Shown: piece after piece, positions 1,479 through 50,242 of the stretch
Layout of the letters: every line of letters starts with the position of its first letter
Numbering within the stretch: the first letter of the stretch is position 1
Assembly (NCBI GenBank): GCA_049976305.1
Contig: JBMFIM010000003.1
Coordinates: forward strand, 1 to 55,918
DNA length: 55,918 nt
From: Candidatus Micrarchaeia archaeon
GTDB lineage: Archaea > Micrarchaeota > Micrarchaeia > Micrarchaeales > CABMGC01
Direction of reading: 5' to 3'
Made by a program: the position numbers and the translations under genes
The notes under the pieces: generated by a model
Told to the model about the DNA's origin: nothing
Seen by the model: the letters and a program-made list of their open reading frames with translations, nothing else
Databases searched by the model: none

Positions 1479-1691
1479 ATGGAGTTTTGGATAGGGGACA
1501 AGAGAATAAAAAAGCCTAACACGCAGCTGTGGTATAGGCTTATGATGCTTCATTTGCCAGTGCTGCATGGCTACGCCCTGAGAAAGCTGGAGAAGTGGTA
1601 TTTCGAAGATGAACCTCTTCTATTTGAGCAGCAGAGGCTTGATGCTATTTCTCGCGCAAGGGCTAGCGCGGCAGAAAGGCCGAAATTCTGA
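1479..1691 (+). CDS. Hypothetical protein (70 aa)
   Basis: SD AGGTGA upstream of ATG; 4 nt after the previous stop, so likely co-transcribed. Confidence 0.55.
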   Translation: MEFWIGDKRIKKPNTQLWYRLMMLHLPVLHGYALRKLEKWYFEDEPLLFEQQRLDAISRARASAAERPKF

Positions 1692-2011
1692 TCCTCTTCA
1701 TTTTTCTGTTTTATTGTTTGAAAGAGTCGCGCGAGCTGGGAGGCGGCATCAGCCGCCTCGTGCTTTGAAAGCTGGTAAGTTATGCCTGTTGTGCTTATAT
1801 AGGCTTCTAGCTCGTACCAGGTGTCTTTGCCCATTTGCTTCTTTTCATCAACGAGCCTCATAAGCTCCCGCACTGTCTTGCAGAGCTGCGCAAAGTCCTT
1901 ATGCCTTTGCATTTGCAGCAGCTTCCTGTACTGTTTCGCCGCTCCAGTGCTGTAGCCGTTGTCCAGCTCCTCATCCACCTCATCCTCCAGCTCACGCTCA
2001 TCCTCTTTCAC
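1571..2011 (-). CDS. Hypothetical helical protein
   Basis: GTG start with SD GGTGGTG; charged helical composition; 3' end overlaps the convergent ORF by 121 nt. Confidence 0.55.
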   Translation of the reverse strand: MKEDERELEDEVDEELDNGYSTGAAKQYRKLLQMQRHKDFAQLCKTVRELMRLVDEKKQMGKDTWYELEAYISTTGITYQLSKHEAADAASQLARLFQTIKQKNEEDQNFGLSAALALAREIASSLCCSNRRGSSSKYHFSSFLRA

Positions 2012-2172
2012 GACACCACCAAGAATAAGCAGCTCCTCGCCGAGCCAATTTGTATGGCGCCTGGCCTGCGCAATTCCCTGATTATTTTTAGTTTAGTAAA
2101 TATTTATATATTTTACTACAAGATTGTGTAGCATTAGGAAATTTAATAAATCTTAGGCATGCAAATTTAATT

Positions 2173-2248
2173 GCCGCGAAAGCGGCCGACATCACCAGAA
2201 AAGCAGCCTTCGCTGCTTTGGGCGGCTTCGGCCGCCCTGTCGATTTTT
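2173..2248 (+). ncRNA. Unassigned, highly structured small RNA (~75 nt)
   Basis: GCCGC-GAAA-GCGGC; CGACA/TGTCG closing a 3-way junction with AAAGCAGC-CTTC-GCTGCTTT and GGGCGGC-TTCG-GCCGCCC; TATA-like TTTAATAAA at 2142-2150; T-tract 2244-2252. Confidence 0.65.
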
Positions 2249-2313
2249 GTTTGGCAATTGCCCGTGCGAGTGCGAGTGCATAGGCTTAAAAAATTCAGGT
2301 GCTAAATAGGATT

Positions 2314-14633: not shown

Positions 14634-14730
14634 GCCGGGATGGCGGAACCAGGTAACGCGCCAGTATTTTGGCGAAACTCGAGATCTGGTTGCCCTTCGG
14701 GCATTTAGGGTTCAAATCCCTATCCCGGCG
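14634..14730 (+). tRNA. tRNA-Ser(CGA) with 12-nt intron (14665-14676) at position 30/31
   Basis: GCCGGGA/TCCCGGC acceptor; after removing TATTTTGGCGAA the anticodon arm is CCAGA-CTCGAGA-TCTGG; long variable arm; BHB helix CGCC/GGCG. Confidence 0.92.
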
Positions 14731-15005
14731 CATATCCTGGAGTCTAGTCTAAAGCTCCGATTTCTTAGTATAAACGCCATAACATTGGCTAATTTTTGTA
14801 CAGATTGTGTGCTAAATTTTCAAAAGAATTTTTAGCTAGTGATTTTTCGAAAAGCCACTCCGTGCTTGTTCGTAAGCGCGTAGCTGCTGATAGAGATGAG
14901 CTCTAGGCTTCTTCTCTTCACTGCAATCTGTTCCTTGAGAAAGATATCTTGCTAAAAGCGGCAGAAGCAATAAAGAAAAGCAAAGACGATATTGCTGCGA
15001 TCTAA

Positions 15006-20377: not shown

Positions 20378-21472
20378 ATGAGGGACATAGCTGCTTCTGA
20401 GCTTTTCGTGGCAGTGCAGGAGCTGAAAAGGCTTATCGAGGGCAAGCGCCTTAACAACTTCTACGACTTGTCAGGCAACGCCTTCAGGCTAGACTTCGAG
20501 GAAAACGCTGTTTATGTAAGATTGGGCAAGACCATCAACGCCACAAGATTCAAGGAGGAAGCAGGCCAGGCTTCGCAATTTGCAATAGCTATAAGGAAAT
20601 ATGTAAAGGGCGCTAGGCTGGAAGCAATAAAACAAAGAGGGATGGACAGGCTGGTATTCCTCAAGTTTTCAAGAGGAATAGAAAAATACTGGCTAATATT
20701 TGAGATGTTCGCAAAGGGCAACGCAGTGCTTGTTGACTCAGAGAGGAAAATCCTCCAGGTATTTGCCAAAAGGGAATTCAAAGATCGATCGCTAACTGTG
20801 AGCTCTAAGTACGTGCTACCAAAAGGCTCGAGTTTCAACCTTGCCAAGGCTGATGCGGAAACCTTGGAGGAAAAGATCAAAGAATCTTGTGCAGAAAGCA
20901 ATGACAAGCTTATACGCACGCTTTCATTCATCAACATAGGGCCTTTGTACCTTGACGAGCTTATAAGGCAAGCAGGCCTTGATCCTAATATGCCTGCAAA
21001 GGAGGCCTTGCCTAGCATGCATTCTCTTCTTAGCAAGCTCATAGAATTCAAGCAGGTGCTTGAAAGCCCTAAGCCGGTGGCGTACTTATCAAACAACCAG
21101 GTTGTAGATTACTCCATAATGCCCCTCTCCAAATACTCTGATCTCAAGCCCATGCCTTTCAATTCAATGAACGAGCTTCTTGACTTCGTATATGCGCAGG
21201 AGAGAGTTGAGATAAAGAACGAGGAAAAGAAGGAAAAGATTGAGGAAATAGAGAAGAGCATAGAGAAGCAGAAGCAGCTTCACAAGGAGTATGCGAGCAA
21301 GGCAGTCACCTACAGGGAAATTGCCAACAAAATATTTCAGAACATGCAGCAGCTGAACGAAGTCATTGCTTTGGCATCGTCCAACAAGGCTGAGAAGGCA
21401 CAGGCCAGTGGAGGCTTTCGCATAGTCAAGATAGACAAGCAGAATAAAAGGATTGTAGTAGAAATAGATTAG
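20378..21472 (+). CDS. NFACT/Rqc2 (aRqcH)-family protein, N-terminal half only
   Basis: FAIAIRK, QRGMDR, EMFAKGNAVLVD, HhH IGPLY, coiled coil; no NFACT-R domain. Confidence 0.8.
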   Translation: MRDIAASELFVAVQELKRLIEGKRLNNFYDLSGNAFRLDFEENAVYVRLGKTINATRFKEEAGQASQFAIAIRKYVKGARLEAIKQRGMDRLVFLKFSRGIEKYWLIFEMFAKGNAVLVDSERKILQVFAKREFKDRSLTVSSKYVLPKGSSFNLAKADAETLEEKIKESCAESNDKLIRTLSFINIGPLYLDELIRQAGLDPNMPAKEALPSMHSLLSKLIEFKQVLESPKPVAYLSNNQVVDYSIMPLSKYSDLKPMPFNSMNELLDFVYAQERVEIKNEEKKEKIEEIEKSIEKQKQLHKEYASKAVTYREIANKIFQNMQQLNEVIALASSNKAEKAQASGGFRIVKIDKQNKRIVVEID

Positions 21473-35570: not shown

Positions 35571-35866
35571 ATGCAGCAGAGCGTGCACTGCACCATGCCT
35601 TCTCCAAAGTTGGCTGCACTAAGGCTCTGCCCTGTATCTTTAGAGCATGGCTGTTTGTACGCAGCCAAGCACATGCTTGGCAGCTGTATACTTAGGGTTG
35701 CTCCTTCCGGCCTAGCCCGGTTTGTATGCACAGCCACCACTAAAGGCAGGGCTTCTTCGCTTTCGTGCAGGCTTTGGAAAAGCACATGGCACTCCGCACG
35801 CATGAGGCTCGCCGAGCAGGGATTTGCGACGTAGGGAAACCCTGAGCTTCCCGCCTTCTGCTGCAT
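35571..35866 (-). ncRNA. ffs: Archaeal SRP (7S) RNA
   Basis: ~296 nt; 10-bp terminal helix ATGCAGCAGA/TCTGCTGCAT; helix-8 motif GGGCTAGGCCGGAAGGAGCAACCC (35695-35718); TATA ~25 nt upstream. Confidence 0.9.
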
Positions 35867-39331: not shown

Positions 39332-39429
39332 GCAGGGATGGCGGAGCTTGGTCAAACGCGACAGACTCAAGATCTGTTGGCCTTAGGCCTGCGGGAGTTC
39401 AAAAGCGTGAACAAATCTCCCTCCCTGCA
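39332..39429 (+). tRNA. tRNA-Leu(CAA) with 12-nt T-loop intron (39403-39414) at position 58/59
   Basis: GCAGGGA/TCCCTGC acceptor; ACAGA-CTCAAGA-TCTGT; removing AAGCGTGAACAA restores GGGAG-TTCAAAT-CTCCC; BHB helix GTTC/GAAC. Confidence 0.93.
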
Positions 39430-49199: not shown

Positions 49200-50242
49200 T
49201 TGTTTTGTGCAACAAGCTGCTTTCCTATCGCTGCTATGTTGCCAAAGCTTTTTAGCTGCATGCCTGCATCATCTTCTGAATTGAATATCTTTATAGGAAC
49301 CTTGTTTACATAGGCTTCTTTGAGAACTTGCTTGATATCTTCTTCGTTTATCACGCTGTCATTGACAAGCACTACCCCTGCTTGATAGCTCTCTATGGCT
49401 TGCCTTACCTTTTCTACCCCTGAAAAAGAAGCTCCGAACGTCAGGCCCTTTAGGAAGAGGTTTATGTAATCAAACTCCTCCTTGACCTTTTCCTTTTCAA
49501 GAAACTTGCCAAGCTCCTCGCTCCCTAAGGCCTCTTTTATGCCGCTTATTTCGGTATCGCTGGCATTCACCCAAAAAAGCTTCTTGCCCAATTCAAGCCT
49601 GCTTGCTTGCATGTATGCTTTCAAGTCTTCCTTTGTGAACCCGGGCCCTGCAACCACTACCGTGTCAACTTTCATGTCCTTTATCTTCTGCGCAACCTGC
49701 TGCAAAAATTTTGCCTTTTCTTTTTCATATTCGCTCTGCTTCATCTTTTTGCTGAGCTTGCTGTAGATCTCTGCGGCTATGCTTATTCCATAACCTTTCA
49801 CATATGCAAAAACTGCCTTCTCGTCGTCTATTGCCACGACCCCGAGCCTGGGCCTTTTGCTAGCTTCCACAGCGTCGCGTATCATGGCTCTCAGATAATC
49901 AGGCCATTCCTGTTTTGCTATTGCTATGCGCTCTCCGGTTTGCAGGTTCAGCGTGTGATAGCTTCCTATTGCGACGTACTGCTCCGGCTTGCCTCTTGTT
50001 ATTTTTCCAGTAAGCCTGAGCCTCTCTGCATTCTTGTCAAGCTCTATCTTTTCCACGCTTATTTCTACAACTACCTCTTTCTGCTCGCCCTCGTCGCTTT
50101 CGCTTGGTCTGTAGCGCCTGTAGCTTTTTGCCTCTACTTTGTCGCCAGGCGAGATTATCCTTGCCAGCAGATAGAGGTCGTCTAGCGTGTCAGCCACTAT
50201 AGATAGCGTGTTTGTGGCCTCGTTGAAGTTTATTACTCTCAT
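49196..50242 (-). CDS. pelA: Pelota (Dom34) ribosome rescue factor
   Basis: DDLY.L..II..GD, LRLTGKI, GSYHTL, AGPGFTK, GMQLKSFG.IAA. Confidence 0.95.
   Translation of the reverse strand: MRVINFNEATNTLSIVADTLDDLYLLARIISPGDKVEAKSYRRYRPSESDEGEQKEVVVEISVEKIELDKNAERLRLTGKITRGKPEQYVAIGSYHTLNLQTGERIAIAKQEWPDYLRAMIRDAVEASKRPRLGVVAIDDEKAVFAYVKGYGISIAAEIYSKLSKKMKQSEYEKEKAKFLQQVAQKIKDMKVDTVVVAGPGFTKEDLKAYMQASRLELGKKLFWVNASDTEISGIKEALGSEELGKFLEKEKVKEEFDYINLFLKGLTFGASFSGVEKVRQAIESYQAGVVLVNDSVINEEDIKQVLKEAYVNKVPIKIFNSEDDAGMQLKSFGNIAAIGKQLVAQNN

Follow-up and report, generated by a model that had tools for sequence, protein, structure and literature searches.

The window analyzed here comprises 55,918 nt of the genome of a Micrarchaeia archaeon (labeled G000 in our set). 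Near its left end lie two genes placed back to back: what is likely a small structured RNA gene with a predicted promoter of its own on the forward strand and, on the reverse strand, an ORF preceded by a conserved leader (Table 1).

Table 1. Features of the divergent sRNA-mRNA locus, with the basis of each assignment
Feature	Position	Strand	Basis
Divergent ORF, 146 codons; conserved core residues 1–84 (2011–1760), remainder an unconserved run-on	1571..2011	−	homologs
GC hairpin adjoining the end of the protein core, with no stop codon ahead of it here; likely 3′-end element of the mRNA	1740..1759	−	z = −3.3
Predicted sRNA target: first base of the GUG start codon, SD GGUGGU (2020–2015) and some 20 nt lying upstream of the SD	2011..2042	−	best genome window
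Conserved mRNA leader, about 69 nt: 5′ GCG..CGC hairpin, YAUACAAA motif, target site	2012..2080	−	homologs
Predicted divergent mRNA promoter: BRE 2117–2111, TATA 2110–2103; predicted start near 2080	2103..2117	−	sequence
Predicted archaeal sRNA promoter: purine-rich BRE 2137–2141, TATA box 2142–2150	2137..2150	+	sequence
sRNA gene, about 71 nt (family about 50–75 nt)	2173..2243	+	fold, homologs, model R3
5′ hairpin, GAAA loop	2173..2186	+	stem kept with compensatory changes, loop free
Antisense (guide) region; 2192–2199 is the exposed toehold with the anti-SD	2187..2215	+	computed pairing
Middle hairpin, lineage-specific; 5′ strand part of the guide, opened in the predicted duplex	2200..2219	+	folds
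3′ hairpin GGGCGGC-UUCG-GCCGCCC, most invariant element of the family	2220..2237	+	alignment
T-tract, predicted terminator	2244..2252	+	sequence

Organization of the divergent locus

The segment 2173–2248 (+) folds into helices of 5, 5, 8 and 7 bp with GAAA and cUUCGg loops, leaving residues 2192–2199 unpaired; its MFE structure (−41.9 kcal/mol, z = −5.32) is also the centroid and was equaled by none of 200 shuffles. The minus strand of the same segment gave a good fold as well (z = −4.86), its centroid being unlike its MFE structure. A compact four-helix RNA lying between a TATA-like box and a T-tract was what the sequence-only reading of this DNA had proposed, and both the coordinates and the structure obtained here match that proposal (z = −5.3, MFE and centroid agreeing), with the box (2142–2150) and the T-tract each present in the sequence. 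The TATA-like box lies 31 nt before the 5′ G of the sRNA in G000 and 27–31 nt before it in 59 of 71 homologs, and with the adjoining BRE we take it to be the promoter, assuming the customary archaeal promoter geometry.

No Rfam match at the gathering score was obtained for the sRNA, and a scan in E-value mode returned PhrS (17.3 against 37 bits) and Pyrobac-1 (14.8 against 40 bits) as the best overlaps with the sRNA. What the sRNA has in common with Rfam tRNA, RNase P, SRP, 5S, Pyrobac-1 (RF01722) and PhrS is only a GC hairpin with a UUCG-type loop, far below the gathering score; nothing came out at or near threshold, in keeping with the earlier reading, which recognized no tRNA, C/D or H/ACA guide or ribozyme in it. 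Other identities were considered and rejected: a stand-in for RNase P, SRP or 5S RNA (all three are encoded elsewhere in the genome), a piece of a split or truncated 16S rRNA lacking its anti-SD (the 16S ends in the family are intact) and a cis-element of htpX, a gene that lies downstream only in genus g1, is separated by intervening genes in G003 and G004 and is no conserved neighbor of the sRNA. In the congener G004 the sRNA is identical over 71/71 nt, the divergent ORF having a dS of 0.56; the promoter region differs from that of G000, and the DNA downstream of the sRNA is unrelated. The insert that separates the sRNA from htpX in G004 (L002:1014–1500) is about 490 nt of such unrelated DNA and contains a 90-codon ORF as well as a short tandem repeat.

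On the opposite strand, the leader at 2012–2080 shows one substitution relative to G004. Most homologs likewise have a TATA-like box ahead of the leader, with comparable spacing, and across the family the leader ends in an UUCUGGGUGAU-like SD sequence followed by the start codon. Its hairpin is present as GCG/CGC in 58 of 70 loci, with a compensatory GUG/CAC in G074 and G075.

A hairpin of −8 kcal/mol or better at the place of the one that follows the protein core occurs in 83 of 94 loci, compared with 60 of 94 for a control window. Up to the end of this hairpin an in-frame stop codon is absent in 66 of the 94 loci and is located before or inside it in the other 28; of the near relatives, G003 and G005 have their stop immediately ahead of the hairpin, unlike G000 and G004. 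Before its next stop the reading frame runs for a median of 24.5 codons, no shorter than the other frames (14.5), and the tails beyond the core are unconserved. If the hairpin is the transcript end, most partner mRNAs would be left without a stop codon, in the manner of arfA and brfA. The mRNA 3′ hairpin (1742–1757) and the sRNA 3′ hairpin (2221–2236) are 88% identical, and the two may be bound by the same 3′-end factor or share a common origin.

Distribution of the sRNA and protein families

A one-sequence model combined with a pattern search yielded ten further loci, and model R2 was built from ten of them. R2 had matches in 74 of 118 family genomes, which represent 25 of 30 genera, and failed to detect G000 and G004, both of which carry an extra hairpin; its second helix had been set one column off and was scored there as a sequence profile. 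The corrected model, R3, built without G000, placed 2173–2241 first in the G000 genome (E 0.005). Reading covered 70 of the 80 listed R2 matches together with G000 and G004, 72 loci that include one false match (L210) and, as with all the family counts given here, come from related genomes that are non-independent samples. The sequence-only reading had allowed that the element might be a dispersed repeat (MITE); it is single-copy in G000, and 68 of the 74 positive genomes gave a single match. R3 matched 21 of 129 sister-family genomes, some of these matches being weak or due to chance, and outside the order it returned 7 weak matches in 5 of 75 genomes, beside none of which was the leader or the protein found. 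An exact 18-mer scan of genome contigs yielded 57 stretches, one from Micrarchaeota and 56 from unrelated taxa that we take as chance. Viral contigs gave no match to the consensus pattern, and in a metagenome pattern scan the cassette layout was seen in 1 of the 80 loci examined, out of 119 matches.

The family core consists of the TATA box, a 5-bp GCC..GGC hairpin, a single-stranded CACCYAGAA and a GGCGGC..GCCGCC hairpin. Over 71 distinct sequences, 95.5% of the cells were paired and 74 cells had changed on both sides; slid controls were 33–57% paired and none of 500 shuffles was as good. Both family hairpins covary. All 5 pairs of the 5′ hairpin show double-sided changes (94% of cells paired), this helix having formed part of the model used for alignment. 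In the 3′ hairpin 96% of cells are paired and 2 of 7 pairs show double-sided changes, a count that is not fitted because the helix was out of register in the aligning model. The CGACA/UGUCG helix that closes the three-way junction was found in G000 and G004 only; the additional hairpin in the middle is confined to G024 and genus g1. The three-way junction described in the sequence-only reading is therefore present here but is no family feature, the core being a single strand flanked by two hairpins. Pairing with the target would not require a 3′ hairpin as invariant as the one seen, and binding of a protein by this hairpin is possible.

A divergent ORF encoding a protein of 82–108 aa starts about 180 nt from the sRNA in 70 of the 72 loci read, and all true loci with enough flanking DNA carry one; the exception to linkage is G226, whose sRNA gene has an unrelated gene next to it on a separate contig. 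In comparisons within genera, 28 of 28 pairs had a dN/dS under 1, with a median of 0.25; the partner protein is real and under purifying selection. Profile searches recovered it in 85 of 117 family genomes and 30 of 129 sister-family genomes, and a wider profile in 57 of 82 and 48 of 94, respectively, and in none of 224 sampled genomes of the phylum outside the order. A profile of the first ten members had just 14 matches among 1.84 billion representatives.

The protein diverges rapidly (mean column identity 17–20%; pI 4.8–9.4). Its core is predicted to be helix-helix-strand-strand, and the two AlphaFold models obtained both have this arrangement, with pLDDT values of 87 and 84. It corresponds to no Pfam, NCBIfam, PADLOC or PHROGs family and gave no meaningful PDB sequence match and no ESM Atlas feature match. 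Fold searches returned VIA Z ≤ 4.9 and Foldseek E ≥ 0.25, the rows to TFIIA-gamma, HU/IHF and histone folds being weak and at noise level, and PF02268 and PF00216 found nothing in the G000 genome at E ≤ 10. When transmembrane segments were sought with a 19-residue hydropathy window, 1 of 73 proteins rose above 1.6. Both the sRNA family and the protein family are thus unannotated in the libraries searched, and no report of such an RNA or protein in Micrarchaeota was found among the mainly openly available papers searched.

A protein tree of 96 rows (14 weak-scoring ORFs were left out) required 33 changes when compared with the genera, against a minimum of 31 and a shuffled value of 77.5. The neighbors differ from genus to genus and, in the 31 loci scanned, included housekeeping, not mobile, genes. 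The tree follows the genera with few exceptions while the neighbors change; the cassette thus moves as a unit, staying for the most part single-copy.

Several loci depart from the usual layout. G055 contains two complete, diverged cassettes (L169, L207), G104 two near-identical copies (L300, L301), and G113 (L302, L303) a second ORF with a leader and without a linked sRNA. In five genomes of three genera (G066, G068, G095, G016 and G060; L151, L159, L194, L198 and L200) a distinct protein variant, unscored by the main protein profile, stands behind a normal leader and sRNA. The partner ORF is in frame with a downstream AP-endonuclease-2 (endonuclease IV-like) gene at L238 and L240 (g18) and at L272, L274, L276 and L277 (g17), giving open frames of 386–414 codons (protein P0008); in near relatives, G046 among them, the two genes do not share a frame. 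In g53 there are three frames of about 700 codons. In g5, g12, g15 and g36 a gene matching the GGDEF domain (E 2e-10) is located downstream of the partner ORF (L172:120–917 and six similar loci). GGDEF domains are uncommon in archaea.

Predicted pairing of the sRNA with the divergent leader

In G000, residues 2187–2215 are predicted to pair with 2011–2042 (−) in a duplex of 29 bp that includes three G-U pairs and three 1-nt bulges. With the complement of the sRNA gene itself set aside, the leader ranked as the best trans target among 48,126 genome windows, at −44.9 kcal/mol versus −31.7 for the next (mean −12.9, sd 3.7). Net binding after the unfolding of both RNAs amounted to −16.9 kcal/mol, compared with −2.6 ± 2.2 for 200 shuffled leaders, the best of which reached −11.3. 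Among start regions led by GGUGR, the next-best in the genome scored −21.7 kcal/mol against −43.6 for the divergent ORF. The idea of an independent sRNA able to mask ribosome-binding sites, put forward in the earlier reading, has thereby gained one predicted target, the SD region of the divergent ORF 2011–1571 (−), which is the best trans site and lies before a gene that went unmentioned in that reading. The CGACA helix and the middle hairpin each have a 3′ strand similar to the target, so the free sRNA exposes only an 8-nt toehold, and binding would go by strand displacement.

Across the family, pairing with the divergent strand reached −25 kcal/mol or better in 57 of 72 loci, whereas control regions did so in 6/72, 5/71 and 7/71; the 15 loci with weaker pairing include three with mis-anchored guides and the false locus L210. 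Nine core positions pair in 58–70 of 70 loci, one position occurring as C-G, U-G, U-A and A-U and a second one as G-C, G-U and A-U, and the SD is covered by the duplex in 68–70 of 70. Cognate pairing was stronger than the other-genus mean in 52 of 70 loci (19 of 22 with one locus per genus) and worse in 18 of 70; it was the best of all in only 10 of 22 genera, a partial specificity that follows from the shared core. At loci found via the protein alone (36 of 40 scored), the divergent strand beat the control strand in 35 of 36, the control being a weak one in that 18 of the 36 control strands also reach −25, owing to the self-complementary hairpin arms.

Changes in the target are accompanied by changes in the RNA. 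The SD of g17 is GAGGCGAU and the corresponding RNA motif AUCGCCUC, while the 16S rRNA there still ends in GAUCACCUC; g53 has switched to UUCCAGGUG/CACCUGGAA, and other guide-target pairs occur in G167, G014 and G193. In G226, the unlinked sRNA keeps an 18-bp ungapped match to the leader. Such cases speak for pairing between two RNAs more than for a repeat in the DNA, and for one dedicated target more than for mimicry of 16S rRNA. Leaders with two tandem sRNA target sites were observed at L195, L197, L203, L206 and L209 (g40) and at L253, L254, L257 and L259 in the sister family.

Proposed control of the divergent gene and related systems

We conclude that the locus represents a new and real sRNA-mRNA cassette of the Micrarchaeales, for which antisense translational control is predicted. 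In the model that we propose, the back-to-back TATA boxes, conserved as signals, would drive transcription of the sRNA (+) and of the leadered mRNA (−). According to the computed structures, the unpaired UCACCAGA toehold would seed on the exposed SD, and strand displacement would open the CGACA helix and the middle hairpin, giving a 29-bp duplex that covers the SD and reaches base 1 of the start codon, with the outer hairpins (5′ and 3′) left intact. Binding of the 30S subunit through the family's 16S tail, GAUCACCUC, would then be blocked, and no protein would be made until the level of the sRNA falls. Taken jointly, transcription, formation of the duplex in the cell and translational repression of the divergent gene appear to us probable. 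A look-up of RNA runs for the locus listed none, an outcome neutral as to expression.

As to why a dedicated silencer should be kept, the leading candidate reason, suggested by the layout, is that the protein may be a growth-arrest or toxic factor. A toxin role like that in type I toxin-antitoxin loci is plausible and held tentatively, and the lack of a transmembrane segment, the single copy, the genus-following tree and the housekeeping neighbors count against this step. More speculatively, the 3′ hairpin that usually precedes any stop codon might provide a second brake via non-stop mRNA. In its most far-reaching form, which is conceivable yet doubtful, the cassette would be a type I toxin-antitoxin system, the first from archaea, serving the host-dependent Micrarchaeales throughout the order as a module for dormancy or addiction. 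Its toxin would be soluble and of a new fold, and would be restrained twice over, once by the divergent anti-SD RNA and once by the lack of a stop in the mRNA, through which toxin release would depend on ribosome-rescue capacity. Because the duplex overlaps the SD, no membrane peptide is encoded and the single copy is inherited mostly vertically, we have not filed the cassette as type I toxin-antitoxin.

The same antisense switch could instead serve a non-toxic regulator, a small dimeric protein binding DNA or a transcription factor, with its dose buffered by the sRNA. Single-copy, mostly vertical inheritance within one order would suit such a protein nearly as well as a toxin, as would the helix-helix-strand-strand model and the recurring, weak rows to TFIIA-gamma, HU/IHF and histone folds; these rows are, however, all at noise level (best Foldseek E 0.83; VIA Z ≤ 4.9), neither PF02268 nor PF00216 found anything in the G000 genome at E ≤ 10, and a mean column identity of 17–20% with a pI range of 4.8–9.4 is unlike a conserved DNA-binding protein. 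We consider this reading rather unlikely. An improbable explanation, in our estimate, is that the mRNA is deliberately stop-less, its product reporting ribosome-rescue capacity and the sRNA acting as a second control. It draws on the 66 of 94 loci without an in-frame stop before the hairpin end and their unconserved tails, on a next-stop distance no shorter in frame than in other frames (24.5 versus 14.5 codons), on the presence of Pelota and an NFACT-domain gene in the genome and on arfA and brfA, described as having a stem-loop or terminator before the stop codon (PMC8012679). Nevertheless, in 28 of 94 loci, those of the near relatives G003 and G005 among them, the frame is closed ahead of the hairpin or within it, the tails may merely be tolerated, the hairpin as transcript end is a prediction, and no library match ties the protein to a rescue factor.

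With its hairpin followed by AUCACC, the sRNA also recalls the 3′ end of 16S rRNA, the family pre-16S having GAUCACCUC often followed by GAA, which is close to AUCACCUAGAA; a likeness of this kind is accounted for by the target being itself an SD. That the sRNA, as a mimic of the 16S tail, acts as a general SD blocker or as a decoy for small-subunit maturation factors is very improbable, given a 5′ stem that varies freely with compensation, an unconserved loop, a variable AU in AUCACC, a g17 motif that changes with the leader while the 16S rRNA does not, and pairing of −21.7 kcal/mol or weaker with all other GGUGR-led start regions. No more credit is due to the view that pairing activates translation or stabilizes the mRNA by opening a leader fold: one leader MFE structure does pair the 5′ end with bases beside the SD, but shuffled sequences fold just as well (z = +0.9, with an empty centroid), and the SD itself lies inside the duplex in nearly all loci. 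Least credible of all is that the resemblance of RNA and leader is a DNA-level repeat (a paired operator, a duplication or a MITE remnant) with terminators as its hairpins. The two sites do form a near-direct repeat on the plus strand, and the GC hairpin with the T-tract is terminator-like; against this, the mismatches between the copies are mostly those that preserve G-U pairs, complementarity persists in the unlinked G226, and the sRNA is single-copy with its own TATA box and no plus-strand gene ending just upstream.

Type I toxins are usually short hydrophobic membrane peptides, SymE and RalR being exceptions. The arrangement of our predicted antisense switch is nonetheless closest in layout to tisB/istR-1, shoB/ohsC and zor/orz as well as dinQ/agrB of E. 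coli as these are outlined in PMC4147584, where sRNA and mRNA are divergent and non-overlapping, the sRNA is complementary to the 5′ leader of one dedicated target and the product is a small protein. The toxins of those divergent loci are short membrane peptides according to the same source, whereas here a soluble alpha/beta protein of 82–108 aa is encoded, the toxicity of which is putative; the host here is archaeal and the cassette single-copy and order-wide. Coverage of the SD by the duplex is also unlike that divergent class and resembles the action of SymR or Sib. The symE/symR pair, with a soluble protein of about 100 aa and an antisense RNA over the ribosome-binding site and start codon, is similar in these respects, but SymR is described as encoded opposite symE (PMC4147584), in contrast to the separate genes and imperfect pairing here, and no library match of the partner protein to SymE was obtained.

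Masking of a ribosome-binding site by an archaeal sRNA is already known from sRNA162 of Methanosarcina mazei (PMC3510493), which likewise places a single-stranded linker over the site, such binding being predicted in our case. The account of sRNA162 gives it a trans-encoded bicistronic target and a cis-encoded second target (PMC3510493); for the present RNA, of 50–75 nt, a single strong target is predicted, and the two travel together as a cassette. The comparison for homology with sRNA162, made via Rfam, gave no match. As described in PMC8012679, arfA and brfA encode small proteins, have a stem-loop ahead of the stop codon and carry a tail that can be dispensed with, an arrangement that the partner gene may share at 66 of 94 loci; they are tmRNA-controlled, with no antisense partner described there, and the partner gene has no sequence match to them and a stop before or in the hairpin in 30% of loci.

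Most members of the order keep the sRNA, the structured leader and the fast-evolving protein together through repeated chromosomal moves. Micrarchaeota genomes are only 0.5–1.2 Mb in size, and retention in such small genomes points to a core regulatory switch. No described regulatory RNA was found for this lineage in the literature searched, and the cassette offers a covariation-backed sRNA-target pair for the study of SD-led translation repression in archaea. Type I toxin-antitoxin systems, which a 2025 source lists for three bacterial phyla only (PMC12390103), would extend to archaea if the protein is toxic.

Other features of the window and of related genomes were recorded. An SRP RNA at 35571–35866 (−), scoring 76 against 96.5 bits and hence below the Rfam gathering cut-off, directly abuts a tRNA-Ser gene, suggesting a joint transcript. 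Two tRNA calls of 98 nt, one at 39332–39429 (+) made by Rfam only and one for Pro at 14634–14731 (+) made by ARAGORN only, are both probably intron-containing. Many 16S genes of the family (L117–L136) have AAGUCAUAACAAGG in place of AAGUCGUAACAAGG near the 3′ end; no 16S 3′-end site was found in G000, and its 16S gene is therefore probably unassembled. The window also holds a Pelota gene at 49223–50227 (−) and an NFACT-domain gene at 20414–21385 (+). Finally, the segment 1020–1260, located between an Lrp/AsnC gene and small unannotated ORFs (1205–1474 and 1479–1691), is almost unchanged in G004.
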